Assembly: GCA_964532495.1 (NCBI GenBank)
Contig: CAZHJZ010000002.1
Coordinates: 1,693-65,692, forward strand
From: an uncultured Candidatus Saccharibacteria bacterium
GTDB taxonomy: Bacteria > Patescibacteriota > Minisyncoccia > Phycocordibacterales > UBA9973
Reading direction: 5' to 3'
Length of the DNA: 64,000 nucleotides
Below are positions 3,774 to 58,023 of the stretch, one piece after another (within the stretch, counting starts at the first letter, position 1; each line of letters starts with the position of its first letter). The position numbers and the translations under genes were made by a program. A model generated the notes under the pieces. That model worked only from the letters and a program-made list of their open reading frames with translations. It ran no database searches and was not told the origin of the DNA.

Positions 3774-4754
3774 CTAGTCTTCGTCCGCTTCGTCTCCAAC
3801 CACTCCAGAATTGAGCGCATCAATGATCTTTTGGATCTGCCCGTTTTGTATAGCTGGGATGTTTGACCATGATTGGCGAATGCGGTGGTCGGTCACGCGG
3901 TCTTGCGGAAAGTTATATGTGCGGATTTTTTCGCTTCGATCCCCTGTTCCAATCTGGTTTTTACGGTCAGCTGCATATTTCTTTGCTTCCTCCTCTTCTT
4001 TCAGCGCTTGGAGTTTTGCGGTAAGGATGCTCATAGCCTTTTCTCTGTTGCCGAGCTGGCTGCGCTCAGATGTCGATCGTACGTCGATACCAGTTGGTTT
4101 GTGGATCAATCGCACTGCTGTTTCAACTTTGTTGACGTTTTGTCCTCCAGCACCTCCTGAACGTGAATATTCCATCTCAAGATCGCCTGGATCAATGACA
4201 AAGTTAACCTTCTTTCTCATTGGAAGAACGGCAACTGAAGCAGTAGAAGTGTGAATGCGGCCATTTTTTTCAGTTCCAGGAACTCGCTGTACGCGATGGA
4301 CGCCAGTTTCGTAGCGGAGATCCTTATAAACATCTTTTCCTTTAATTTCAAGAGAGACTTCTTTGTAACCGCCCACATCGCTTTTTGCTTCTTCTGTAAT
4401 CTTTGAAGACCAGCCTCGGCCTTCTGCGTATCGCTGGTACATTTCTGCCAATTCCCATGCAAACAATGATGCCTCGTCGCCTCCTGCGCCAGCTCGTACT
4501 TCCATGATGATTTCATTCGGGAATTCCTCCTCTTCTTTCTCGCTTTCCTGGATTTGTTTTACCTGCGACTCGATAGCCTCGCGCTGAATTTTTAGAGATT
4601 CGATCTCTTCTTTGCCAAGTTCAAAAAGCGATTCGTCGTCGCCAATGGCTTCGCGAACTTTTTCTTCTTCGACTTCAAGACGCTCGTATTCGTCGACGAG
4701 GTAGCTCAATCTGTGGTTTTTGCGAAGTTCATCGCGGGTGGTTATATCTAGCAT
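3774..4754 (-). CDS. prfA: peptide chain release factor 1 (PxT-type, motif PGT; GGQ present)
   Basis: 326 aa; RVQRVPGTE...GRIHTS and [11 protein letters not shown] motifs; no SPF motif (not RF2). Confidence 0.85.
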
Positions 4755-4764
4755 ACGTTATTCC

Positions 4765-4846
4765 TACACTTAGTGGCTGCACGAGCCTGGTCGAGGAAGT
4801 ATGGAAGTACCACGCCGCTCGCGGCAACCTGCTTATCAGCAGGTTG
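4765..4846 (-). ncRNA. conserved structured RNA element, copy A (hairpin with GAUA loop engulfing the rpmE stop codon; ends in the prfA Shine-Dalgarno sequence)
   Basis: 82-nt element shared with 34509-34590 and 19939-20016; conserved blocks CCGCG...GCGUrrUAC...CGAyCArG...CGUGCAGCCAyWAAGUGUA; compensatory changes in two helices. Confidence 0.5.
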
Positions 4847-4847
4847 G

Positions 4848-5120
4848 CTATTTTGACTTCTTTTTTGAAGCAGTAGCTTCCTGGCGCTTCTTGAACTTGT
4901 CCACGCGTCCTGCAACGTCAAGGAGAACTTCAGTTCCAGTATAAAAAGGATGAGATACGCTTGAAATTTCAACACGGTACAAAGGATATTCTTTGCCGTC
5001 GTCTTTCGAGATGCCAGTTTCTTTTGTAGGTACAGTTGAGTAGATAAGAAATTGAGCTCCGGAAGTCATATCTTCAAATATAACCTGGCGATAGTCTTTT
5101 GGGTGGATGTCTTTTTTCAT
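4848..5120 (-). CDS. rpmE: 50S ribosomal protein L31 (non-zinc type B)
   Basis: 90 aa, [10 protein letters not shown]... typical L31 N-terminus, no CxxC. Confidence 0.9.
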
Positions 5121-5165
5121 ACCGGGCTACTATAGCATTTTTTCAAAGATTTGCAAGATGCGACT

Positions 5166-6593: not shown

Positions 6594-7232
6594 TTACTCC
6601 GCAGCTGGCTCCTCTTCGTCTTTCTTTCCTTTCTTTTCAACTTCGATTTTCGACAAATCGATCGGTGTAGCTGTATCTTCGACTTCTTCTACCTGTGCTG
6701 CAAGTGATGCAATAACCTCGTCCTGTCCTGCTGTTGCAGTGACTCCTGCTGGAAGTTTCAAGTCTGAAACAAGGATCTGGTCATGAAGCGCTACGAGTTT
6801 TGAGAGATCAACGGTTACTGAGTGAGGCATGTGTTTTGGAAGTCCTGAAACTTCGATTTCATGCATAACTTTAACCAAAGTACCAAGGTTTCCTTTTACT
6901 GCTGGTGACACACCGTCGAATTCGAGCGGGATAGCCACTTCGATTGGCTTGTTCATGTCGACTACGAGGAAGTCTACATGAAGAGGAGTTCCTCTCAACG
7001 GATCAAACTGGACTTCGTGGATCAAAACGTCTACTTTTTCGCTTCCTACTGTAAGAGTGACAGTTGAAGATTCGCCAGCTTCCTTGAAAGCCTTCTCGAA
7101 TTCCTTCTGTTTAATGCTAATTGGAGTTGTTTCTTTGCCTGCGCCGTAAAAAACTGCTGGAACCATGCCCCCTGTTCGGATTGCAGCGAGATTTTCTTTA
7201 GGATCGCGTGTTGTTGCTGTGATATTTGACAT
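6594..7232 (-). CDS. rplY: 50S ribosomal protein L25 / general stress protein Ctc
   Basis: Start moved to internal Met (MSNITATTRDPKENL...), 213 aa; the upstream part of the track ORF runs through GC-rich non-coding-looking sequence. Confidence 0.8.
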   Translation of the reverse strand: MSNITATTRDPKENLAAIRTGGMVPAVFYGAGKETTPISIKQKEFEKAFKEAGESSTVTLTVGSEKVDVLIHEVQFDPLRGTPLHVDFLVVDMNKPIEVAIPLEFDGVSPAVKGNLGTLVKVMHEIEVSGLPKHMPHSVTVDLSKLVALHDQILVSDLKLPAGVTATAGQDEVIASLAAQVEEVEDTATPIDLSKIEVEKKGKKDEEEPAAE

Positions 7233-14915: not shown

Positions 14916-15764
14916 CTAAGCAAACAAGTTTTTCCAATCGCTTGCGAATTTCTCGATACCTTTATCTGTAAGGTCGTGCTGTATATTATATGAATTCCAC
15001 TCCCCTTCATTCAGGTTTTTGTACGGGATCTTTTCTTTTGGCTGCGTAGGCGCTGGAATAGTTAGTTCCGGATTGGCGACCCATTCTTTATAAATTGAGA
15101 GCGGCGCTGTAATAATATCGATTCCTCCATCTACGCATTTTTTTACATGTTCAAGATTGCGAATACTTGCTCCTAATACTGAAACATGGCTGTTCCAATC
15201 TAGATACATTCGTTTAATATTTGTAACAAGATCTGAGCCTTCGAGTCCGATGTCGTCCAATCTGCCGATAAACGGTGAAACAAAAACTTGATCGCGGGCA
15301 GCTCCTTTTGTGGCAGCATGTACGGCTGCAGCTTGTTCTTGGGAGAAACAAAGTGTCATGTTTACTCTTATTCCCTCACTCGTAAGGATCTGAGCGGTTT
15401 TTAAGCCGGCTTCAGTCGTGGGCAGTTTTACATATACGCCAGGAAACCAACTAGCCAAAATCCTTCCTTGTGCAAGCATTGTTTCGTGGGTTGTGTCGCT
15501 ATCTGCAAAAACTTCAACTGAAATGGCACCATTGGGAATAACTTCTTTAATTGCCAAAGCTACTTCTTTATATTTGTCCCATATTACCGTTTGATCCAAA
15601 GCCTTCTGTTCTTTAAGTTCAAGAATATGCGGGTTTTTTGCCACAAGTGAGGGGTTAGTTGTCTGACCATCAAGGAATCCAAGTATAGCTAGTGCTTCCT
15701 CAGTCTCAGCTGGGTTGCCGCTATCTAGGAATAATCTGGTTTGTTTGTGTTCAACTGATTTCAT
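14916..15764 (-). CDS. tal: transaldolase / fructose-6-phosphate aldolase family protein (short type with C-terminal extension)
   Basis: 282 aa; LFLDSGN, TTNPSL, VKLP motifs of TalC/FsaA family. Confidence 0.8.
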   Translation of the reverse strand: MKSVEHKQTRLFLDSGNPAETEEALAILGFLDGQTTNPSLVAKNPHILELKEQKALDQTVIWDKYKEVALAIKEVIPNGAISVEVFADSDTTHETMLAQGRILASWFPGVYVKLPTTEAGLKTAQILTSEGIRVNMTLCFSQEQAAAVHAATKGAARDQVFVSPFIGRLDDIGLEGSDLVTNIKRMYLDWNSHVSVLGASIRNLEHVKKCVDGGIDIITAPLSIYKEWVANPELTIPAPTQPKEKIPYKNLNEGEWNSYNIQHDLTDKGIEKFASDWKNLFA

Positions 15765-19047: not shown

Positions 19048-19917
19048 TTATCTATGCTCGCTTTTAATCTTACCTCCTAATGTGCGAAGCTCTTCGAGGG
19101 CCATCTTTGCTTCTTCTTTGTTTGGAGCTTTACCATGCCAGTGGAAATCATACTCGAATTCCTTTACTCCCTTGCCTGGGATAGTTCGAGCAATGATGAC
19201 CGACGGTTTATCGGTTACTGCTTTTGCTGTATTGATCGCAGTGTCTATCTGTCTGAAATCATGGCCATCTATTTCCTGCACATGCCATCCGAATGTTTTG
19301 TATTTTTCACCAAGATCGCCGAGCGGCATGATATCTTCGGTATATCCGTCGATTTGAATATTGTTGCGATCAATAATAGCGATGAGGTTATGAAGCTTTT
19401 CTTTACCGGCAAGAAGTACTGCCTCCCAGGTATTACCTTCGTCATGCTCGCCATCAGAAAGAAGTGCGTAAATAGTTTTGTGCGTTGTCATGCCGTTATC
19501 GATACGGTCAGCGAGTGCCATTCCGGTTGCCTGTGAAAGGCCTGAGCCGAGCGGGCCAGAACTTGTTTCAAGCATTGGTAGATACTCTCTATGCGGATGG
19601 CCTTGGAGGCGAGAACCGAATTTTCTAAGCGTTTGCAGTTCAGTCGTGCTGAAATAGCCTGCATGCGCCATGGTAGCGTATAGTACCGGACAAATATGAC
19701 CATTAGAAAGCACTACTCTGTCGCGATCTGCCCATGTTGGGTTCTTTGGATTATGTTTGAGCGAATGAAAATAGAGATGGGTGAAGATATCAGTCATGCC
19801 GAGCGGCCCGGCAGTATGTCCGGAACCCGCGGTAAGCAGCATAGAAATAATACTTTCGCGAATATCATTTGCCTTAATTGCGAGGTCGGAGATTTTGAGA
19901 TCGTCGAGTGGTTCCAT
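19048..19917 (-). CDS. transketolase, N-terminal section (TPP-binding)
   Basis: 289 aa; GSGHTAGPLGMTDIFTHLYF... N-terminal transketolase signature. Confidence 0.85.
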   Translation of the reverse strand: MEPLDDLKISDLAIKANDIRESIISMLLTAGSGHTAGPLGMTDIFTHLYFHSLKHNPKNPTWADRDRVVLSNGHICPVLYATMAHAGYFSTTELQTLRKFGSRLQGHPHREYLPMLETSSGPLGSGLSQATGMALADRIDNGMTTHKTIYALLSDGEHDEGNTWEAVLLAGKEKLHNLIAIIDRNNIQIDGYTEDIMPLGDLGEKYKTFGWHVQEIDGHDFRQIDTAINTAKAVTDKPSVIIARTIPGKGVKEFEYDFHWHGKAPNKEEAKMALEELRTLGGKIKSEHR

Positions 19918-19938
19918 ATACTTCCAAGTATATCATGA

Positions 19939-20016
19939 TTTACCGGTAGGTAAATTACCGCGCGCGGCGTAGTACATTAAAATTCAGCGACCAGGCGCGT
20001 GCAGCCACAAAGTGTA
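19939..20016 (+). ncRNA. conserved structured RNA element, copy C (plus strand, antisense to flanking tkt/rpe genes)
   Basis: UUUACC-GGUA-GGUAAA hairpin then CCGCGCGCGGCGUAGUAC...CGACCAGGCGCGUGCAGCCACAAAGUGUAGGA; same block order and pairing pattern as copies A/B. Confidence 0.5.
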
Positions 20017-20042
20017 GGAAAAAGTGGAGTAGAAATTACTAC

Positions 20043-20735
20043 TTATAAATCTGTTTTCAAGTTTTGAAAGTCTTCAACCGTGCTTTGAATATCTACTTCG
20101 TCAAAAAGTGCTGAACCAATGACAAGCCTGTTTGCCCCGGCCGCAAGAAGCGGGTGCGCTGTTGTTTTGTTCACTGCGCCGTCAACACTGATAATCATGT
20201 TTGGAGCAAGTGCGCGGACTTTGAGTATTTGCCCGATAACGCGTTCATCGAATGGCTGGCGCTGTTTGCCGATAGCCGCAATGCCCATGCATTGCACGAA
20301 TTTGATATGTGGAAGGAGTGGAATCAAAAGATCTGTATCAGTAGTTGTATTGATCGCTACGCCCATTTCGATGAAATCTTTGTAATACGGATCAACTGTT
20401 TCAAAAAAGCCGAGCAAGTTGTCTTCTGCTTCAAGATGAAAAACCAAACGGTTGGGGCCAATTTTAAGAAGTCGATCAAACTGCTCAGATGCGTTTTTTG
20501 CCATGAGGTCGAACTCGTAGTTCACCTGTTCCCAATATGGCAAGCCGGTTTCTTCGTTGACGATCTCGTTGTAGGCCATTACGTCTTTTCCGTTAAAAGG
20601 CCAGGATTTGGTAGCAACATAGACGCCATCGCAGAAATCTATCTGGATAGTTTTGACCAAGGTAAATACCATGGAAGACTTTGTACGTATTTCACCGACA
20701 TTCTGCGGCATGATTGCTGGAATAATTTCTATCAT
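20043..20735 (-). CDS. rpe: ribulose-phosphate 3-epimerase-like (divergent; first metal-ligand His not conserved)
   Basis: 230 aa; ...FHLEAE..., MGIAAIGKQRQPF (GFGGQ-like), ISVDGAVN, AGANRLVIGSALF blocks. Confidence 0.55.
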   Translation of the reverse strand: MIEIIPAIMPQNVGEIRTKSSMVFTLVKTIQIDFCDGVYVATKSWPFNGKDVMAYNEIVNEETGLPYWEQVNYEFDLMAKNASEQFDRLLKIGPNRLVFHLEAEDNLLGFFETVDPYYKDFIEMGVAINTTTDTDLLIPLLPHIKFVQCMGIAAIGKQRQPFDERVIGQILKVRALAPNMIISVDGAVNKTTAHPLLAAGANRLVIGSALFDEVDIQSTVEDFQNLKTDL

Positions 20736-21567: not shown

Positions 21568-22602
21568 CTAGTTAATAGTATTGCCTGTCTTGATTACATG
21601 CTCAACCAAAGTGTGCGTATACCCCATCTCGTTGTCGTACCATGCCAACACTTTGACCAAGTTTCCGCCAACAACGCGAGTCATTGCGAGGTCTGCGATA
21701 GATGCATGTGTTTCGCCAAGGATGTCAGATGATACAAGCGGCTCTTCTGTGACTGCGAAAATTTCCTTCCATCGGTCGCTTTTCGCAGCGTCTTTTAGGA
21801 TTTGGTTTACTTCTTCCGCTGTTACTGTTTTCTTTGAGATAAACGTAACATCAACAATTGAACCTGCTGGAACTGGCACGCGAAGTGAAATACCGTCAAA
21901 GAGTCCTTTGAGATCGGTAAATGCTTCTGTCACAGCGATAGCTGCACCAGTTGAAGATGGAACGATATTTTGAGCCGCTGCACGGCCTTCTCGGAGGTCT
22001 TTCTTTGCAGGACCATCCACGAGTGCTTGAGATGCTGTATAGCCGTGTGTAGTTGATAGCAATGCTTTCTCAATACCAACGGTGTCATGCAAGATTGCAA
22101 TAAGCGGTGATGCAGCGTTAGTTGTACATGAAGCGTTAGAAGTGATCGCACATGTGCCGAATTTGTTTTCGTTTACGCCAACGAGAATTGTCTCGCCTTT
22201 GATGCCTTCGTCTTCTACGTCATGAGCTGGCGCAGTGATAACAACTTTCTTTGCTCCCTGAGTGATATGAAATTCAGACTTGTCATACGCTGCAAAAAGT
22301 CCTGTAGATTCAACAACAACGTCAACTTCCAGTTCTTTCCATGGAAGTTTTGTTGTATCTTTTTCTGAAATAAATTTGATGGGCTTTCCGTCAACAATAA
22401 GGCCGTGCTCATCGCGAGAAACTGCATGGTTCCATTTTCGGTATACAGTATCGTATTGGAGCAGGTATGCGAGTGATTCCAAGGTTCCAAGGTCATTCAC
22501 TGCGACAATTTCCACTTCTGGGCGTTCCCAAGCTAATTTAAAAAACGCGCGGCCGATGCGGCCAAAGCCATTGATGGCTACTTTGATTTTGGTCTGTGTC
22601 AT
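21568..22602 (-). CDS. gap: glyceraldehyde-3-phosphate dehydrogenase
   Basis: 344 aa; KVAINGFGRIGR NAD-binding motif, ASCTTN active-site block. Confidence 0.9.
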   Translation of the reverse strand: MTQTKIKVAINGFGRIGRAFFKLAWERPEVEIVAVNDLGTLESLAYLLQYDTVYRKWNHAVSRDEHGLIVDGKPIKFISEKDTTKLPWKELEVDVVVESTGLFAAYDKSEFHITQGAKKVVITAPAHDVEDEGIKGETILVGVNENKFGTCAITSNASCTTNAASPLIAILHDTVGIEKALLSTTHGYTASQALVDGPAKKDLREGRAAAQNIVPSSTGAAIAVTEAFTDLKGLFDGISLRVPVPAGSIVDVTFISKKTVTAEEVNQILKDAAKSDRWKEIFAVTEEPLVSSDILGETHASIADLAMTRVVGGNLVKVLAWYDNEMGYTHTLVEHVIKTGNTIN

Positions 22603-29456: not shown

Positions 29457-29484
29457 AAAAAAAACGCCGTTAGGCGTTTTTTTT
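29457..29484. terminator. bidirectional rho-independent terminator
   Basis: AAAAAAAACGCC-GUUA-GGCGUUUUUUUU. Confidence 0.8.
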
Positions 29485-31849
29485 ATTGAGTGATAGTGGA
29501 ATCTGTTTCTGGCGCTGGAGTCGGATCAGGCGTCGGCTGTGGTTCTGGTGTAAGTTCCGTCTCCATTTGAGGTTGAGTGTCAGATATTACTTCAGGATCA
29601 CTGGCTGGTGGAGTTTCTTCTGGTGTAGTTGGTATTACCGGATCATTATTGAGTTGCCCCTGACTCCCCTGGTTTTGTCCAGAGATTTGATTTTTAAGTT
29701 CAATCAATTGTCGTACATCATTCTCTGTTAAACATTGACCGTCAACACAGAGCTGGTGAGTAGTAACTTTGTCTGAAGAAACATTTCCGAGTCCGTTTGT
29801 GCTACTTCCGAGCCATGACATGAGAGTAGTTTTGAAACTGCTATCACCTATTGTATCAAAATTCTCTATGTTCTTGATCTTAATATCTAATTCACGGATT
29901 GCCTGGAGATTAAGTAAATTTAATCGCGTGTAATTTACTTGTCGATAGCCATCCTTATCAAAGATAACCAAATCTGGAAAGACTGATTCAACATTTTGAG
30001 CAAGCACGCCTAGTTGAGGTATACCGCCAATAAAACCTCGAGACTGTGCTAGTTCGTTCCAGTCAAAAGTTACTAAGTTTACTTGTACAAGCTTATCAAG
30101 CACATTTCCTACTGGCTGAATATTTGTTTTTAAGCGTTCATCTGACGAACAACTTCCACCGAGAATTCCACCGGCAAAGTCTTTCAAACAGCCATTGGAG
30201 CCTGATGTACCGACGCGTATGTCGCCAAATACTTCAAGCTTGTCTCCAGTTGATGGTGTCACCCCTAATCCAACAAAGCCCCCATCCCACACAAGGTTGT
30301 TATTCATAATAAGCGATGTGTTTGCACCAGGAGTAGTCGGGCTGCCTTGTTCCTGCTCATACCGAAGCGTAATCGCTCCATCGACAATATCAATACTGTT
30401 TCGCAAATAGTTATTGATATCGTCAGAATTTTTATTTGAAAAGAGAGATACGCCATTGTTTGTTATATATACTGCTCTGTCGTCGGCACATGGAGTAGCG
30501 CCGGGAATATTGTCGTTACATCGGAAAAATGTTGCATCATCCTTGAACGAGGTGAAGCCGTAGCGCATATTTGTATTGAGGTTTCTTGTTTCCAAAATAC
30601 CCATTGTATTTCCTCCGTTTACTTTTCCGCCAATATCAACTGAAGTGTTTGCCGCATGGTCATTCAACCAAAGTGCTGTGCCATTGTCATCAAGGGCAAG
30701 AAATGAGTCGGTATTCGCATTCATGGTGGAATTCAACTGAACAGAGCCATCATTTGCCATACCAAAGGAATTGTTTGAAGTTGCACCATTGTTGTAAACC
30801 TGGAATAACCCTGGTTTCACATTAAAACTTATATTATCAGTAGAAACAGTTCCTCCCACTTGAAAAGACTTTGCACCATCGTCCCAAGTGAAATCGCTAC
30901 TTCCGCCAAATGCTCCGGTGTTATTAAACTGAATGCTTGTATCTGGTGCAGCCGGATTAGTTGGGCTTCCGCCGCCAACCGTTGCCCATGAGAAGTGACC
31001 AGAACCGTCAGTTACCATAGCTTGGCCATTCGTGCCGTCTACTGTCGGCATAGTAAAGAATGTTCCGTCGTAGTTATAGCGAAAACCACTTCCATCAAGC
31101 TCAATTCCTGTACTAATGCCGCCAGTTGTAGTTGAAGCTAAATTTATGCCACCCGATGCAGGCATGGTTAATACTGAGCCAGTTGAATTTATACCGTTAT
31201 TTGAGAAAAGCTTAATTCGTGGGTTGCCACCATTCCATTCATTTGCAATTGTTGTTGTTTGTTGTCCCGTAAAATCTAAAAGAAAACTCTGAACAGCCTT
31301 ACCTGAACCGACGTTCAAGTCTCCATTTAGCGTTCCGTAGACATATCCGGCTGTTGGATCAACTGATGTTACTCCTGCGAATTGTTCACCACCATCAAGG
31401 AAATTATCATTGTTCCCCATCCTTGTCTCTGTGCCGTCTCCGTGCGTAAAGGTGTTCATGAAGTCGCCGGCTACATGTACTGAATATCCAGGAGTTGTGG
31501 TTCCGATACCTACCTTGCCGTCAGCGAGAACGCGCATCGCCTCAGTATTATTTGTTTTTATTACAAAAGCCTGTGAGTCTGTGGTACCAATGAAGTTAGT
31601 TCCGGGGGTTGTACCTGCATTTCCGTTCAATCCCCATCCGCCAATGTTTTGAAAACAGTTAGACGATCCAGGCGCGCACCCTGGATCAAGGATGCTGTCT
31701 CCTGCAGCATATCCTCCAGATGGCGGAGTAGTCCCGTTCGGCAATTGAGCAGCCATAACCACATACGAATACCCTGTTACCGCAAAGATGCATAGAAATA
31801 GCAAAAAATACTTATTGGCAAATATGCTGCGCCTTGGGTTCATGTACAT
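29483..31849 (-). CDS. secreted tail-fibre-like protein with C-terminal intramolecular-chaperone (peptidase S74-like) motif, paralog 1
   Basis: 788 aa; signal peptide, conserved N-terminal block AQLPNGTTPPSGGYAAGDSILDPGCAPGSSNCFQN, Gly/Asn/Thr-rich fibre-like repeats, ...GGSCSSDERLKTNI... autoprocessing motif, coiled coil, Pro/Thr/Glu-rich tail. Confidence 0.6.
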   Translation of the reverse strand: MYMNPRRSIFANKYFLLFLCIFAVTGYSYVVMAAQLPNGTTPPSGGYAAGDSILDPGCAPGSSNCFQNIGGWGLNGNAGTTPGTNFIGTTDSQAFVIKTNNTEAMRVLADGKVGIGTTTPGYSVHVAGDFMNTFTHGDGTETRMGNNDNFLDGGEQFAGVTSVDPTAGYVYGTLNGDLNVGSGKAVQSFLLDFTGQQTTTIANEWNGGNPRIKLFSNNGINSTGSVLTMPASGGINLASTTTGGISTGIELDGSGFRYNYDGTFFTMPTVDGTNGQAMVTDGSGHFSWATVGGGSPTNPAAPDTSIQFNNTGAFGGSSDFTWDDGAKSFQVGGTVSTDNISFNVKPGLFQVYNNGATSNNSFGMANDGSVQLNSTMNANTDSFLALDDNGTALWLNDHAANTSVDIGGKVNGGNTMGILETRNLNTNMRYGFTSFKDDATFFRCNDNIPGATPCADDRAVYITNNGVSLFSNKNSDDINNYLRNSIDIVDGAITLRYEQEQGSPTTPGANTSLIMNNNLVWDGGFVGLGVTPSTGDKLEVFGDIRVGTSGSNGCLKDFAGGILGGSCSSDERLKTNIQPVGNVLDKLVQVNLVTFDWNELAQSRGFIGGIPQLGVLAQNVESVFPDLVIFDKDGYRQVNYTRLNLLNLQAIRELDIKIKNIENFDTIGDSSFKTTLMSWLGSSTNGLGNVSSDKVTTHQLCVDGQCLTENDVRQLIELKNQISGQNQGSQGQLNNDPVIPTTPEETPPASDPEVISDTQPQMETELTPEPQPTPDPTPAPETDSTITQ

Positions 31850-33639: not shown

Positions 33640-34416
33640 CTATTTAAGAAATTCTGGCTTTACTATTCCCTCCAATTCGCTAAATGGAATCGATACTTCT
33701 ATGATTCCCGCGGCGTATGAGGCAATAGCGTATTGCTGAAAGATAATGACAAGATTGCTTCCATTAAACGCGAATGTCGTAAAGTTTCCTGCGTCAGGTC
33801 CAGCGCTCTCAGCTAGCCATTCGGTGTTGATAGCTTCCTTATAATCTGGAAGTGCGAGGGCGTGCTGCTGTACCAATTCAGAAAATCGCTTAATCGCTGC
33901 TTCATCTACAAAGAGATCGGTGGCTACGATAGATTTTCCAGTAAAATCATACGTATATGTTTTTACAACCGTACCCCCGTGCGCTCCTCCTGAGTACGTG
34001 TATGTGTCTAACCGATGCGTCAAAAATGATGCGTTTCCATATGCTTTGTATTGGGTAATAAAGCTGTACTGACGATCTTTGGTGGGGCCGAATTCTTCCA
34101 ATTGTGTGGGAGTAAGCTTTGCTGGATCATTCTCTGCTTTGAACTGTGCTAGCTCCGCGTAGATACGGCCCTTGATATAGTCAGCTCCAAAGATATCTAC
34201 GGGATATTCTCCATGGATTTCAAACCCAGGACTGGAAGTATCTTTGAATGTTTCTTTTTTTATTGAGGAAATCGTAAATCCAGTTGGTTCTTGTATCTGA
34301 GCTTCTTCCTCAAGAACGGGATTGCGTACTATTACTTTTTCACGTATATACAACGCAACTCCTGCGATTACTATAAGTGCGAGAAATAATATGACCTTTG
34401 AGTAGTGTTTATTCAT
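33640..34416 (-). CDS. membrane-anchored DUF4163/DUF3298-domain protein (RsiV-like extracytoplasmic domain)
   Basis: 258 aa; N-terminal TM; YSGGAHG hallmark of DUF3298. Confidence 0.6.
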   Translation of the reverse strand: MNKHYSKVILFLALIVIAGVALYIREKVIVRNPVLEEEAQIQEPTGFTISSIKKETFKDTSSPGFEIHGEYPVDIFGADYIKGRIYAELAQFKAENDPAKLTPTQLEEFGPTKDRQYSFITQYKAYGNASFLTHRLDTYTYSGGAHGGTVVKTYTYDFTGKSIVATDLFVDEAAIKRFSELVQQHALALPDYKEAINTEWLAESAGPDAGNFTTFAFNGSNLVIIFQQYAIASYAAGIIEVSIPFSELEGIVKPEFLK

Positions 34417-34508
34417 AGTGAAAGTATACTCTCAATACAAACACCCCGCAAATAGTTTGCGGGGTGTTTGTATTGAGGCTTGGATCAGGAAATGAATCCT
34501 GTCCTACT

Positions 34509-34590
34509 TACACTTAATGGCTGCACGCCCTTGATCGCTAAAGTTTAAAAGTATCACGCGGGGCGCGGTAACTAGCCTACCGGCTAGTTA
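34509..34590 (-). ncRNA. conserved structured RNA element, copy B (hairpin with GGUA loop contains the dnaK TAG stop; followed by a 15-bp terminator-like hairpin before the next gene)
   Basis: UAACUAGCC-GGUA-GGCUAGUUA then CCGCGCCCCGCGUGAUAC...CGAUCAAGGGCGUGCAGCCAUUAAGUGUA; block order and pairing identical to copy A. Confidence 0.5.
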
Positions 34591-48246: not shown

Positions 48247-50004
48247 TTACTGAAGTACTGCCTTGATTCGTCGCACTCCTTGCGAGACAGCTTCTTCTTT
48301 TTGAATTTTAAAGCTGCCAAGTTCTCCTGTGTTAGAAACGTGCGGGCCGCCGCAGAATTCTTTCGAGAAATGAGAGCCATCTTTTTCTTGAATGAAATAG
48401 ACAGAAACTACATCAGGATACTTCGCTCCGAATTCCATTTCAGCGCCAAGTGCTTGAGCTTCTGAAAGCGGCATTTCTTTGCGCACAACATCAAGTTTTT
48501 CAGCTATTTTTTCATTGACTATTCTTTCTACTTCGGCTTTTTCTTCATCAGTCATCTTGCGGTCAAAAATAAAGTCCATGCGGAGGCGTTCTTCAGTGAT
48601 ATTTGAACCTCGTTGCTTGACTGAGGAGCCTAAGACCTGCTGTAAGGCAGCAAGCAGTAAATGATGCGCGGTATGCAGCTTCACTGTCTCTGGATTAGTA
48701 TTCGCAAGGCCTCCTTTGAATGTACCGGCACTTGAAGTTCGAGATTGATCCTGGTGTTCTTTGAGTTTTTGATCAAAAGCCTCACGGTCAATCACCGTGC
48801 CTCGTTCGCGAGCAAGTTCTTCGGTAAGTTCAATGGGGAATCCATACGTCGTAAAAAGAATGAACGGATCAGTTCCCTTTTCAAATTGGCGCAAACCATC
48901 CTTGAGCATTCCACGAAACTTCCTCTCTTCATCAAGTATTACGGCTACTGTTTCGCTTTCTTGTGCGGCAAGCTCAGGATATGCCCCTTTGTATTTGTTT
49001 ATAGTCATGGAGACCAAGCTTGCAAGCGCTTCTTCTGGCAATCCCAGCATATCTGCAAAACGAATAGCGCGTCTGAGCAATCGTCGGACGATATACCCAC
49101 GGTCTTTGTTTGAAGGATGCACGCCGTCTGTTATCAAGAAAACACTCGTGCGCACGTGGTCTGAGATTACACGAGCTGCTTTAAGATCTTCAGTTTTCTG
49201 ATTGCTTTTGATGTATTCCATTACATCAGCAAAAAGATCGGTGTCGTAAATATTGCTTTTGCCCTGCACGACAGTCGTTACGCGTTCAAGTCCAGCACCA
49301 GTATCCACATTGCGTGCTGGAAGCTCTCCTGCTACTTGGCCATTTTCTTGGCGGTACATCATGAAGACGTCGTTCCATATCTCCACAACCTGTTGGGCAT
49401 CTTCAGCTAGTTCAAATTCTTCCTGGCTCATGTCGCCAAGGGTACCAGTGAGATCATAGAACATTTCAGTTGAGGGTCCTGCTGGTGAATTTGGACCTGC
49501 GCTCCACCAATTTGATTTTGAGTTTTTGAAATATATGCGATGCTCTGGCATGCCGAGCTTTTTCCAAATTTCAACTGATTCAAGATCGCGCTCGACAGCA
49601 TCACTGCCGCCAAAAACAGTCACATAGAGGCGTGCTGGATCAAGCCCCAATCCTTCTTCTTTTGAAGTAAGGAACATCCAGCTCCACTCAATCGCATCTT
49701 GTTTAAAATAATCCCCAAGCGACCAGTTTCCGAGCATTTCAAAAAAAGTAAGGTGAGTTGCGTCTCCCACTTCATCTAGGTCTACTGTTCGTACGCATTT
49801 TTGTGAATCTGCGAGGCGAGTGCCGTCTGGGTGCTTTTCGCCCATAAGATACGGCATAAGCGGCTGCATTCCGGCAATATTAAAAAGTGTGGCGTTTGCG
49901 CCATTTCCAGTATCTTGAGTAACCAATGAGGCTGAAGGGATAACAACGTGCCCTCTGTTCTTGAAAAAGGTTAAAAATCGGCTCCGAATTTCGTGTGATT
50001 GCAT
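48247..50004 (-). CDS. alaS: alanine--tRNA ligase, short form lacking C-terminal DHHA1/oligomerisation domain
   Basis: 585 aa; catalytic core and editing-domain HxxxH (HTAHHLL) and ...GGPHV... motifs. Confidence 0.9.
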   Translation of the reverse strand: MQSHEIRSRFLTFFKNRGHVVIPSASLVTQDTGNGANATLFNIAGMQPLMPYLMGEKHPDGTRLADSQKCVRTVDLDEVGDATHLTFFEMLGNWSLGDYFKQDAIEWSWMFLTSKEEGLGLDPARLYVTVFGGSDAVERDLESVEIWKKLGMPEHRIYFKNSKSNWWSAGPNSPAGPSTEMFYDLTGTLGDMSQEEFELAEDAQQVVEIWNDVFMMYRQENGQVAGELPARNVDTGAGLERVTTVVQGKSNIYDTDLFADVMEYIKSNQKTEDLKAARVISDHVRTSVFLITDGVHPSNKDRGYIVRRLLRRAIRFADMLGLPEEALASLVSMTINKYKGAYPELAAQESETVAVILDEERKFRGMLKDGLRQFEKGTDPFILFTTYGFPIELTEELARERGTVIDREAFDQKLKEHQDQSRTSSAGTFKGGLANTNPETVKLHTAHHLLLAALQQVLGSSVKQRGSNITEERLRMDFIFDRKMTDEEKAEVERIVNEKIAEKLDVVRKEMPLSEAQALGAEMEFGAKYPDVVSVYFIQEKDGSHFSKEFCGGPHVSNTGELGSFKIQKEEAVSQGVRRIKAVLQ

Positions 50005-55573: not shown

Positions 55574-56056
55574 CTATAAACCTGATTTGAAATGAACAGG
55601 AATGCTAATATATTTTTTCTGCAATCCAGGAAGCATGTTTTGTATTATGATAGTTCCCTCTTCGCTGAAGAACGAAACGGGAGGATTGAGTGTTGCTTCA
55701 AAATAGTACGGCTTTCCGTCGGCTATATTTGCTGCTGATACAGGAAGATCTACTTTTGAAATTATAAGACCATTCCCTGCAAGCAATGTCGCTGTGCCGA
55801 TGACTCCGTTTACAGGCTCCCAATCGCATCCATTGCCATATCCATATACTTTATAAGGAAAAGATACGGAAGCATCTTTCTTGGGAGCGTATAACGTTAA
55901 TCCACAATCAAGCTTTAGTATTTTTTTATAATTACCCAAGCCGAACGGATGCTGTTCGGTAAAATACCCCATGGCAAAAAGCGCTACCAAGATGCCAAGA
56001 AAAGTAAGAATGATAAACGGTATTATTCCTCTGTTTGTATTGTTTTTTATTTTCAT
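55574..56056 (-). CDS. small membrane-anchored protein (possible Ig-like extracytoplasmic domain)
   Basis: 160 aa; N-terminal TM; overlaps upstream fibre gene by 4 nt (translational coupling). Confidence 0.35.
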   Translation of the reverse strand: MKIKNNTNRGIIPFIILTFLGILVALFAMGYFTEQHPFGLGNYKKILKLDCGLTLYAPKKDASVSFPYKVYGYGNGCDWEPVNGVIGTATLLAGNGLIISKVDLPVSAANIADGKPYYFEATLNPPVSFFSEEGTIIIQNMLPGLQKKYISIPVHFKSGL

Positions 56057-58023
56057 TGGGATGGTTCCGAAACTGGTAACTGATCAGATTGGTTACTTTC
56101 AGTCGGCGGTGCGACTTCCGTCCCTGTAGCAGAATCCACTGAGGCATTTTCTGAGACTTCAGGTACTTCTGGAACTGAAACTTCTGGAACGGGAACTTGA
56201 ACTTCTGAAACTGGTACTTCTGGAACTGGATTGGATACCTGCTGGGATGAATGCAGCTGTGATTGTGAACTTAAAATCTCATCCACTTGTGAACGGTCAA
56301 GGCATGTTTCTCCGTTCGCATCCGCTACACAGATTTTTTCAGTAGTGAGCTTGTGTGCAAAGATATTTTGGATACCATTCCCTGCACTGCTCAACCACGT
56401 TGCTACTTGAGAAATCAATGAATCTGCACTGAGGTTTGAAGAGCTCTCTAGATGCTTTATTTTAATATCAAGTTCTCGAACCGCTTCTACTAAAAGTGGT
56501 GTCACTCCTGCGTAGTTTGCCTGCAAATAGCCATTTGGCGCTGTTGAAACAAGTTGTGGATAGATGGACTGCAGGTTTTGTGCAATAAATCCGATGTGTG
56601 TATCGCTATCTTGCCCCTCTTTCCAATTATAAGTCACTGTTCTCAGTTGCGTGAGTGTTTCGAGGGTTGAAGGTGGTAAATCAGTAATATTTTTTTTCAA
56701 TCGTTCATCAGAAGAACAAGAGATACCTGCTCCTGATGTCGTGTTGACACTACATGAGGTGAAACCGCTACCGGTAATCACCATATCGTTGATTGGATAC
56801 AAAGTTGAACCGATAACCATTTGATTGCTTGCGGTTATCTGTGCCGCGCGGCCAATAGCTATAGAAGCGTTGAGGCCAGGTGCACTTGCAGCAGAGTCTG
56901 ATCCAATAAAGATATTATTACTCCCGGTTTCATTGTTTGCTCCAGCAGTGTCACCCAGTGCTACGTTAAATGAACCCGATGTATTGTTTTGTCCTGCCAA
57001 TGCTCCAAGAAACATGTTGTTTGACCCGAGACTATTCAATTTTCCCGCCTGATAACCAATAATGACATTTGAAAATGGAGAGGTAGTGTTTGCGCCGGCT
57101 TCATAACCAAGCATTACTGAGTTTCCGCCAGTAAGAGTTGAACCTGCCCCCCAGCCAATCAAAGTATTGGCTCCTTGTGCGTCCTGGCTCGTACCTGCGA
57201 ATGCGCCAATAGAGACTGAACGCTGATAGGTTGCCCCTACAGCGCCTATGCCCGCCTGCTTACCAATAGAAATGTTGTCTGTGCCGGAAGTGTTTTTTCC
57301 AGCTGAAAGTCCAATGTTAAGTTTTCCTGCAAAAGAAATATCGAGTATGTTATCAGTTGTTGTTGATCCAAAAGTAAAGCTGCGTGCTACGTCATCAAGT
57401 AAAAATCTCGTACCATTCGCAGCAATATTTGTATCACCGAGAGAAACAGTTCCAGTAGTTCGGCCAATAATTGTTTGAGCAGTGTCATTCACTTCAATCA
57501 ATGTACTATTTCTTTGATCATCTATATCACCAAGCTGAACAAGATCATCTGGCACATGAACGAAAAATGAAGAATACTGGCCGTCATTTACCCCGAAATC
57601 AACCGCGGTTGCACCTACAGTAGAAGCACCGTCATCAAGGTACAAAACTGTCCCATTTCCAGCACTATTGACATCTCCTGCAAAAAACGTACTCGTTGCG
57701 GTATCAATTGTAGTAGCTTTTGTCGCCGCATCTCTCATAAAACCAGCATCGCCGAATACGTTTCCTGAATTATCTGTATACAGCACTTGATCTGCTGCGC
57801 CTCCGATTATTTTTTGTCCAATATAAATACCCGAATTCTGAAAGCAATTTAATGAACCTGGCGCGCAACCCGGTTGAAGAATACTATCGCCAGCATTATA
57901 TCCTCCGCTTGGAGGAAGCGTCCCATCGGCCAGCTGTGCTGAAAATACGACCACTCCATATCCTAGGACGGAGAGAATAGTGACACAAACAGCAAGCAGC
58001 TTCTTATGAGGAATGAGTGTCAT
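56053..58023 (-). CDS. secreted tail-fibre-like protein with C-terminal intramolecular-chaperone (peptidase S74-like) motif, paralog 2
   Basis: 656 aa; signal peptide; AQLADGTLPPSGGYNAGDSILQPGCAPGSLNCFQN; Gly/Asn/Thr repeats; ...GAGISCSSDERLKKNI...; coiled coil; C-terminal (PEVxV)n repeats. Confidence 0.6.
   Translation of the reverse strand: MTLIPHKKLLAVCVTILSVLGYGVVVFSAQLADGTLPPSGGYNAGDSILQPGCAPGSLNCFQNSGIYIGQKIIGGAADQVLYTDNSGNVFGDAGFMRDAATKATTIDTATSTFFAGDVNSAGNGTVLYLDDGASTVGATAVDFGVNDGQYSSFFVHVPDDLVQLGDIDDQRNSTLIEVNDTAQTIIGRTTGTVSLGDTNIAANGTRFLLDDVARSFTFGSTTTDNILDISFAGKLNIGLSAGKNTSGTDNISIGKQAGIGAVGATYQRSVSIGAFAGTSQDAQGANTLIGWGAGSTLTGGNSVMLGYEAGANTTSPFSNVIIGYQAGKLNSLGSNNMFLGALAGQNNTSGSFNVALGDTAGANNETGSNNIFIGSDSAASAPGLNASIAIGRAAQITASNQMVIGSTLYPINDMVITGSGFTSCSVNTTSGAGISCSSDERLKKNITDLPPSTLETLTQLRTVTYNWKEGQDSDTHIGFIAQNLQSIYPQLVSTAPNGYLQANYAGVTPLLVEAVRELDIKIKHLESSSNLSADSLISQVATWLSSAGNGIQNIFAHKLTTEKICVADANGETCLDRSQVDEILSSQSQLHSSQQVSNPVPEVPVSEVQVPVPEVSVPEVPEVSENASVDSATGTEVAPPTESNQSDQLPVSEPSQ
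56150..56235 (-). repeat. imperfect 15-18-nt tandem repeats (coding, PEVPVSEV low-complexity tail of fibre protein 2)
   Basis: repeated (u)acuucuggaac(u/g)g(a/g)a units. Confidence 0.5.

Follow-up and report, generated by a model that had tools for sequence, protein, structure and literature searches.

The window analysed here, a stretch of 64,000 nucleotides from an uncultured Candidatus Saccharibacteria bacterium, contains three copies of a structured intergenic element: copy A between rpmE and prfA, copy B at the 3′ end of dnaK, and copy C, antisense, between rpe and the transketolase-N gene (tkt). Read on both strands, the three copies display near-identical architecture and lie where the initial annotation had placed them. 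Their 19-nt 3′ block, CGTGCAGCCAYWAAGTGTA, occurs three times in the window versus 0.01 times expected from shuffles. When the whole window was searched with filters off, a covariance model derived from related copies (R1) gave 85–94 bits for copies A–C and only 15 bits for the next match, which is unrelated junk; the window therefore holds exactly three copies. The architecture first described thus stands, whereas its length does not: the unit measures ~105 nt rather than ~80 nt. Its parts are as follows.

4755–4846, minus strand: copy A, whole unit, between the rpmE stop (4848–4850) and the prfA ATG (4752–4754)
4825–4846, minus strand: copy A P1 hairpin, 9 bp, loop GAUA
4780–4823, minus strand: copy A P2 helix, 5′ arm CGCGAGC at 4817–4823, 3′ arm GCUCGUG at 4780–4786
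4762–4779, minus strand: copy A invariant block CAGCCACUAAGUGUA plus AGGA (4762–4765), the AGGA lying 7 nt 5′ of the prfA AUG
34486–34590, minus strand: copy B, whole unit
34569–34590, minus strand: copy B P1, holding the dnaK stop TAG at 34584–34586
34561–34567 and 34524–34530, minus strand: copy B P2 arms
34509–34523, minus strand: copy B invariant block
34431–34477, minus strand: native dnaK terminator, outside copy B, also in relatives without the element
34423–34428, minus strand: promoter TATACT downstream of dnaK, outside copy B, also in relatives without the element
34414–34416, minus strand: leaderless ATG of the DUF3298 gene, outside copy B (whole native stretch, 34414–34477)
19936–20042, plus strand: copy C, whole unit, antisense, between the rpe stop and the transketolase-N promoter
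20043–20045, minus strand: rpe stop next to copy C
about 19927–19935, minus strand: transketolase-N promoter TGATATACT
19936–19957, plus strand: copy C P1
19959–19965 and 19995–20001, plus strand: copy C P2 arms
20002–20016, plus strand: copy C invariant block
20017–20042, plus strand: copy C tail

Copy A is shorter at its 3′ end than the family consensus, and its P2 encloses a 30-nt loop with the conserved GGCGUGGUAC ... ACCAG. The opening hairpin had been described as engulfing the upstream stop codon in both copies A and B; this is the case in copy B, whereas in copy A the rpmE TAG ends 1 nt ahead of the P1 hairpin. Genes in the window are mostly leaderless and sit behind a TGnTATACT/TATAGT promoter 6–10 nt 5′ of the ATG, with Shine-Dalgarno-like sequences rare; examples are 5121–5165(−), 14007(+), 14916–15764(−), 21568–22602(−), 31942(+), 33640–34416(−) and 48247–50004(−), and the rpmE promoter is canonical, TTGCAA-N16-TGcTATAGT. 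Two further window genes, 29483–31849(−) and 56053–58023(−), encode 788- and 656-aa proteins with a Peptidase_S74 (endosialidase chaperone) domain, as in phage tail-spike-like or surface proteins, and an 853-aa protein of the same homologue type lies near dnaK in L080.

The family comprises 21 intact copies, three in the window and 18 elsewhere, plus two decayed ones; the covariance search proposed in the initial annotation did return further homologs. Outside the window, the carriers are two related MAGs and a small number of metagenome contigs. When 185,579 species genomes were scanned for the exact pattern, only two MAGs gave true copies: the first bears the label Paceibacterota (7 contigs), the second Saccharibacteria (5 hits). 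Matches to the 3′ block in non-CPR genomes, eight in number, are due to chance. The Chloroflexi MAG matches at L001:1872–1890 and L012:6519–6537 lie in an apparently conserved coding N-terminus (RAAKKCR); what they share is this coding motif and not an RNA family, and they have no relation to the element. A gapped-pattern scan of JGI metagenomes provided five more copies on JACCDG/JACCDT contigs, and the covariance model added the variant copy L004:3636–3739, an intact copy in L049 and the decayed copies in L051 and L080. A second, broader model built on all copies (R2) detected no further members in 345 kb of clade DNA, and a scan of viral contigs gave 24 loci, all of them chance matches without P1 or P2. 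In ~130 kb of DNA from close relatives, whose PrfA is 79–93% identical to that of the window, there are no intact copies, compared with three in the 64-kb window. Given so few carriers and this difference between close relatives, the distribution of the family is narrow and patchy. The literature yielded no specific account of a CPR or Saccharibacteria motif or repeat of such kind. Rfam 15 at the gathering threshold matched only tRNAs across the whole window and 15 loci, and at E≤10 it gave only junk or generic-hairpin matches for copies A, B, C and L006; the element family, as initially proposed, is absent from Rfam and previously uncatalogued.

Applied to the three window copies, RNAalifold predicts P1 as a hairpin of 9 bp at the start of the element and P2 as a long-range helix; single-sequence folds of the same copies are only modestly more stable than shuffles (z = −1.2 to −2.0). 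Structure was counted on a 22-sequence model alignment (A7). P1, 8–9 bp long across copies, shows double-sided changes in all eight pairs, with 97% of cells paired; P2, the 7-bp helix CGCGNNC/GNNCGUG, shows double changes at four of seven pairs, with 98% of cells paired. The NN positions of P2 occur as AG/CU, CC/GG, CG/CG, CA/UG and AC/GU, and one G·U of this helix is invariant in the 21 intact copies. The covariation score reaches 0.42, versus 0.13 for shuffles (0/500 reach 0.42) and ≤0.08 for slid registers. These data bear out the earlier proposal of a genuine family with covarying helices, including the covarying 7-bp helix. The second proposed helix, the 4-bp UGGU/ACCA, fares poorly in the larger set: it is 86% paired, with G·A or A·C mismatches in up to 6 of 21 copies per pair, and its single compensated lineage consists of copy B and its orthologue. 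Apart from the invariant G·U, pairing exhibits no strand asymmetry (1 G·U versus 2 A·C). An all-against-all column scan of the alignment identified no further supported helix or pseudoknot; the UGGU/ACCA helix (as P3), a GUACUU/AAGUGU pseudoknot, a CAC-WAA-GUG mini-hairpin, a GUGG/CCAC pairing and an AAGUG/CACUU downstream helix were each rejected as invariant or uncompensated, without covariation support. A local CGCG/CGCG hairpin competes with P2 as an alternative pairing.

The best-conserved positions of the element are unpaired: the linker C, NGCGUGGUA on the 5′ side of the P2 loop, and CAGCCAC-AAGUGUA 3′ of P2. The mean top-base frequency is 0.95 in this last block versus 0.66–0.67 in the loop centre and tail. 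Of the shared motifs initially listed, the 3′ block is common to the whole family, whereas CGAyCArG and UAGGA are not; likewise, the P1 loops are GNNA-type in the window (GAUA or GGUA), with GAAA and also UUUA in copies elsewhere. The copy orthologous to that of L008 (L004:3700–3790) carries C-to-U changes at the linker C and at the C after P2 (UCGCG ... CGUGU). Two sequence subtypes of the P2 loop can be distinguished, and both occur in every carrier genome. The element is non-coding, in that six-frame translation of all copies gives no conserved ORF, with stops scattered in all six frames.

Two pairs of orthologous copies, L008/L004b and L002/L049, allow the stems to be compared in situ. In these pairs, 0 of 32 P1 stem positions changed and 2 of 28 P2 stem positions changed, the latter amounting to one compensatory A-U to C-G pair, versus 17 of 32 positions in the variable loop and 12 of 46 in the tail; neighbouring coding DNA diverges by 10–17%. 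P1 differs completely among paralogues and not at all between orthologues. Since stems are kept or compensated between orthologous copies, the fold is under selection. Pairing and conserved blocks are kept up in resident copies, while those of L051 and L080 have decayed. The earlier view that the element is not a simple DNA repeat is supported.

Comparison of orthologous sites reveals that the element is present at some and absent at others. For all three window positions, close relatives have an empty site, and against these the unit amounts to ~105 nt inserted or substituted between a stop codon or terminator on one side and the following promoter on the other. Between rpmE and prfA, five relatives have the stop, a terminator, a TATAAT/TATACT promoter and, 9–10 nt on, a leaderless ATG (A6); in the window, copy A replaces terminator and promoter and ends AGGA-N7-AUG. 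Between the SLT gene and rpmE, 8–10 nt separate the stop from the −35 TTGCAA in the window and four relatives (A8); L049 and L002 carry the element, antisense, at exactly this gap, and L047 carries an unrelated structured module there. The rpe–tkt spacer of L047, L048 and L052 comprises 5–18 nt with a TGcTATACT promoter overlapping the stop (A9); in the window, the 105 nt of copy C separate the stop TAA from TGATATACT. At the 3′ end of dnaK, L078 and L079 have the stop, a terminator and a TATACT promoter and no element (A10); in the window, copy B stands ahead of this same terminator, and in L080 a decayed copy-B orthologue now lies partly inside the dnaK ORF. Relative to L049, L016 bears a clean 240-nt insertion of the element plus another hairpin module, directly 3′ of a terminator T-run and with flanks 92% identical. 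In L004a the element stands in place of a ~80-nt terminator-like stretch of L008, flanks being identical. Ahead of one gene, the spacer is occupied by the element in L020 and by a different module in L009.

These comparisons of empty and filled sites set the ends of the unit at the base of P1 and at about AAUAAnnACU. No terminal inverted repeats are present at these ends, P1 being a hairpin at one end only. The sole candidate target-site duplication is a possible 3-nt TTA/TAA at copy C, with nothing evident at L016/L049 or L049/window. Presence or absence at orthologous sites comes close to the alternative raised initially, that the copies might be ends of a mobile DNA element, although each copy is a small insertion in its entirety rather than the end of something larger, and no clear duplication was seen. 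The polymorphisms are presence/absence differences, with which either gain or loss is compatible. A stop codon inside the opening hairpin most likely reflects insertion of the element where a gene ends, at or within its extreme 3′ terminus.

The ORFs and tRNA genes around each copy were charted. Co-directional genes flank eight copies that read in the same sense; three or four others, copy C at rpe–transketolase-N among them, are antisense. Convergent genes enclose three copies and divergent genes two or more, one copy is 21 nt 5′ of a tRNA gene, and three lie directly 5′ of another structured module. Orientation is mixed, with ~12 copies co-directional with the upstream gene and 7 not, and 6–7 copies (a third) point away from any gene. 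Five or six copies start 0–2 nt after the T-run of an intrinsic terminator, and in several the stop of the upstream ORF overlaps the first bases of P1; a canonical terminator follows the element in two copies, copy B and L015. No recurrent gene class was found beside the copies, all flanks having been mapped, and the neighbours (prfA, the DUF3298 gene, tkt, a tRNA gene, structured modules, convergent gene ends) are unrelated. The behaviour of an autonomous module, first suggested by the antisense copy C, is supported by this mixed placement.

The tail of the element, rGGAAnAACTGrAATAAnnACT (motif CTGrAATAAT), resembles the extended −10 promoter of the clade. In L008 it is the only promoter-like site ahead of the next gene, and in the orthologue L004b it is partially duplicated in tandem (AGCCACAAA ... 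twice), the second repeat ending in a perfect CTGATATAAT promoter. In L006, L009 and L025b, a structured RNA module begins 7 nt after the −10-like motif of the tail. Conservation within the unit is nevertheless at its lowest in this −10-like region, and downstream of most sense copies stands a separate canonical promoter. In copy A, the AGGA is well placed as a putative prfA ribosome-binding site (RBS), and prfA no longer has the promoter that relatives carry. On the reverse complement of its P1, copy C offers a −35-like TTTACC for the tkt promoter. A strong sigma-70-like site at 19895–19922 (+), TTGAGA-16-TATACT with 10/12 matches, lies antisense in the first transketolase-N codons; pointing into copy C, it could transcribe the element strand there. 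Inspection for a sigma-54 motif, an ECF GGAAC motif or a −35/−10 promoter in or upstream of P1 gave no consistent pattern.

Several other modules accompany the element in this clade. A second module of ~75–95 nt consists of GGAGAGCGCUGCC, a long covarying hairpin and CUUCGCGCC, and occurs at L006:4455–4550, L009 about 6600–6700 (−), L025 about 2270–2365 (−) and L049:4340–4420; it lies directly 3′ of the element at three loci and alone, as an rpmE–prfA leader, in L049. Its hairpins are wholly different in sequence and still paired, and have no Rfam match. L006:4455–4755 spans ~300 nt and folds (−174 kcal/mol, z = −13.7) into long, almost perfect hairpins that meet in a three-way junction, which GGGAGAGCGC/GCGCUCUCCC closes; it begins 7 nt after the −10-like motif of the element, ends just before a canonical TGATATACT promoter, and may represent either clustered palindromic modules or an ncRNA. 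A third module, CGGAGCGCGACGGCGCGAG ... AAAAUCNCUCANGAUUUUA, is found at L047:9500–9620, at the same stop/−35 gap upstream of rpmE as the element in L049 and L002, and at L006 about 4640–4720. A fourth, the hairpin module CCUGCGUACAGAUGCGUUCCAAGAUUG ... CAAUCUUGGAACGCAUCUGUAC, is found at L016:1860–1990, co-inserted with the element, and at L009:3470–3580, the site of the element in L020. The atpD–atpC spacers contain other ~110-nt long-hairpin sequences in L045:18069–18180, L049:12973–13084 and L047:18424–18550, and a decayed element copy in L051. Intergenic hairpin modules seem to be a general feature of the clade.

In length (~80–100 nt) and in having covarying helices around conserved unpaired nucleotides, the element resembles riboswitches and structured leaders, from which it differs in lacking a consistent gene association, orientation or expression platform. 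Copies do not occupy the sense 5′ UTR of a related gene set; they occur in both orientations beside unrelated neighbours. Nor does the element bring its own expression platform, as the copy-B terminator is native and no U-tract follows P1 or P2. It does not correspond to an intrinsic terminator either: CCGCG follows P1 and CAGCC follows P2, with no U-tract. The segments GCGUGGUAC/ACCGCG, which we took to resemble a T-box sequence, are in the wrong order and without a match to the Rfam T-box, and this likeness was dropped.

Among small dispersed repeats, MITEs share with the element dispersed copies and presence/absence polymorphism, and are set apart by terminal inverted repeats, which the element does not have. 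REP/BIME sequences are imperfect palindromes of 20–40 nt with a conserved GTAG head and a RAYT gene in the genome; this identity was rejected, the element being 105 nt long, asymmetric and without the conserved GTAG, with no Y1 transposase among the scanned window proteins; integron attC was rejected as well, the R″/R′ boxes (RYYYAAC / GTTRRRY) being absent from the alignment and the neighbours being syntenic housekeeping genes. Correia repeats, which are Neisseria MITEs, are likewise ~100–150 nt long, with many intergenic copies and insertions that differ among close relatives; outward promoters can be present on them, and once transcribed they fold and influence the expression of neighbouring genes (PMC3184786). 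However, Correia repeats have 26-bp terminal inverted repeats and a TA duplication, and the element has neither, being instead asymmetric, with two helices and a single-stranded block that does not vary. Neisseria REP2 and Borrelia IR-A place two stem-loops with a promoter, an RBS and sometimes an ATG before different genes (PMC3184786), much as copy A supplies AGGA-N7-AUG to prfA; in those repeats, however, the promoter comes first and orientation is fixed, whereas in the element the stem-loops come first and a third of copies face no gene. ERIC, BOX and REP (BIME) sequences are transcribed intergenic repeats, patchy among related strains, whose RNA hairpins affect mRNA stability (PMC3184786). 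Yet these are simple imperfect palindromes, with a GTAG head and a RAYT partner in the case of REP, while the element does not form a single long palindrome and is best conserved where it is unpaired. PATEs derived from IS200/IS605 resemble the element in having no terminal inverted repeats, no clear target-site duplication, a hairpin near an end and insertion beside a recognised flank. They differ in that both of their ends carry similar subterminal hairpins and that their target is a fixed tetra- or pentanucleotide; the element has a hairpin at its 5′ end only, and its 5′ flanks tend to be T-rich without a fixed motif. No TnpA or TnpB was found in the window, and Pfam scans of 28 window proteins detected no transposase, reverse transcriptase or recombinase/integrase. 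By analogy, the best reading is that the element would work like Correia, REP2 or ERIC elements while fitting none of their definitions.

We see an even chance that the element is a non-autonomous dispersed repeat, restricted to this clade, whose RNA or single-stranded DNA (ssDNA) fold is under selection and whose tail is SD/promoter-like. Under this model, ~105-nt modules would be gained, lost or swapped at gene boundaries in either orientation, landing just after stops, at terminator T-tracts or in place of a terminator hairpin. Each unit consists of a perfect 8–9-bp P1 with a GNNA-type loop, a single linker C, a 7-bp P2 with its invariant G·U and a 30-nt loop with conserved flanks, followed by the invariant single-stranded CAGCCAC-AAGUGUA and a tail like the clade's RBS plus extended −10. 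We infer that the fold acts on one strand, as RNA or ssDNA, serving either propagation of the element or an RNA role at the host level, and that the unit, when co-transcribed, would supply hairpins and, at some loci, furnish the gene downstream with an RBS (as copy A for prfA) or with an outward promoter. Against this reading, the invariant single-stranded block and the in-situ conservation of stems exceed what one would expect if the repeat were decaying and purely selfish; a family of genuinely functional ncRNA genes would account for them just as well.

Owing to the invariant junction nucleotides, a functional ncRNA, including a new ribozyme, is a serious rival, albeit one that we consider unlikely. 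Each copy would then be a gene or a processed transcript piece dispersed by gene duplication, and the conserved junction plus 3′ block an active site or a protein- or RNA-binding surface, as in a new self-cleaving or processing RNA or a multi-copy trans-acting sRNA; the architecture of two helices, invariant junction and tail would be compatible with a new self-cleaving ribozyme class. Invariant single-stranded segments and an invariant G·U beside covarying helices, stems that are kept or compensated while loops drift, placement independent of orientation, the lack of an Rfam match and the presence of both sequence subtypes in each carrier genome all fit such a family. However, P1 has no conserved promoter upstream and abuts a terminator T-run in five or six copies, the unit is without a terminator of its own, copies decay (L051, L080) or are missing from close relatives, and sites are interchangeable with unrelated modules. 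That the fold is instead the ssDNA substrate of a structure-specific HUH, tyrosine or other recombinase, comparable to PATEs, REP/RAYT or folded attC, appears distinctly unlikely. In such a substrate, P2 would join the conserved 5′ (CCGCG) and 3′ (CGTGCAGCC) segments and the G·T mismatch would mark the strand, consistent with conserved sequence flanking a covarying helix, directional placement beside hairpins and T-tracts, a P1 outer arm resembling native target sequence, and the lack of terminal inverted repeats or an obvious target-site duplication; yet the hairpin stands at one end only, no conserved target tetranucleotide was found, the attC R-box consensus is absent, no candidate enzyme gene was seen in the window and the viral contigs hold no copies.

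A DNA-level cassette, in which P1/P2 stop incoming transcription and the tail restarts it, would account for the exact replacement of terminator plus promoter at rpmE–prfA and of a terminator-like stretch in L004a, as well as for the promoter-like tail. We nevertheless regard it as very unlikely, as P1 and P2 both lack a following U-tract, nothing in the unit is less conserved than the −10-like part, many copies lie beside a separate canonical terminator and/or promoter, and antisense copies exist. Extremely improbable is a cis-regulatory leader or riboswitch, with a P1–P2 aptamer controlling the downstream gene through tail or terminator. The initial annotation saw such a layout in copy A, which ends at AGGA-N7-AUG, and in the terminator after copy B, and the local CGCG/CGCG hairpin that competes with P2 would suit a switch. 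However, the copy-B hairpin is the native dnaK terminator shared by L078 and L079, the copies occur in both orientations beside unrelated genes, a tRNA gene and convergent gene ends, with 6–7 facing away from any gene, and their positions are not conserved in close relatives, being present or absent at orthologous sites. As orientation, neighbours, the native “expression platform” and positional instability all contradict the riboswitch-like model, the element is most probably not a ligand-sensing leader.

The dispersed-repeat reading leaves room for a more specific idea concerning how sites are chosen. In the six copies that abut a T-run, the lower outer arm of P1 is T-rich, with 19/30 T versus 24/75 elsewhere (T-richness of the arm versus flank: Fisher p = 0.004, Mann–Whitney p = 0.006). 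The lower outer arm has a look-alike in the native sequence of three of four empty sites (ATTTA at rpe–tkt, TCACCT/CTCACT after rpmE, TGTCT in L050), whereas the closest empty site, in L049, shares only TG with it. This tracking of the flank by the P1 outer arm may be fortuitous, or may stem from insertion microhomology or from the inner arm pairing with its target like a guide. Because the T-rich arm tracks the T-run, empty sites resemble the arm, and P1 differs among paralogues yet not between orthologues, we tentatively put forward, as a long shot with some merit, a structure-dependent mobile RNA or ssDNA module in which P1 pairs the target flank with a guide arm, and/or a self-processing ribozyme junction. 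The guide arm would let base pairing select the insertion site, with terminator U/T-tracts as the original partners; instead, or as well, the invariant junction would free the unit from read-through transcripts.

For motif hunters, the case carries the lesson that covariation alone does not prove a riboswitch. Patescibacteria (CPR) genomes are ~1 Mb and tightly packed, and repeated 105-nt non-coding modules under structural selection are unexpected in them. The combination of covarying helices, invariant unpaired nucleotides and presence/absence polymorphism provides a tractable case for studying how repeats spread in such reduced genomes, which have few recognisable transposases. It also raises the question of whether repeats rewire transcription units, as at prfA, where a read-through RBS spacer stands in for a terminator and leaderless promoter. 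If P1 is guide-like or the core catalytic, the element would represent a new mechanism of mobility or RNA processing.
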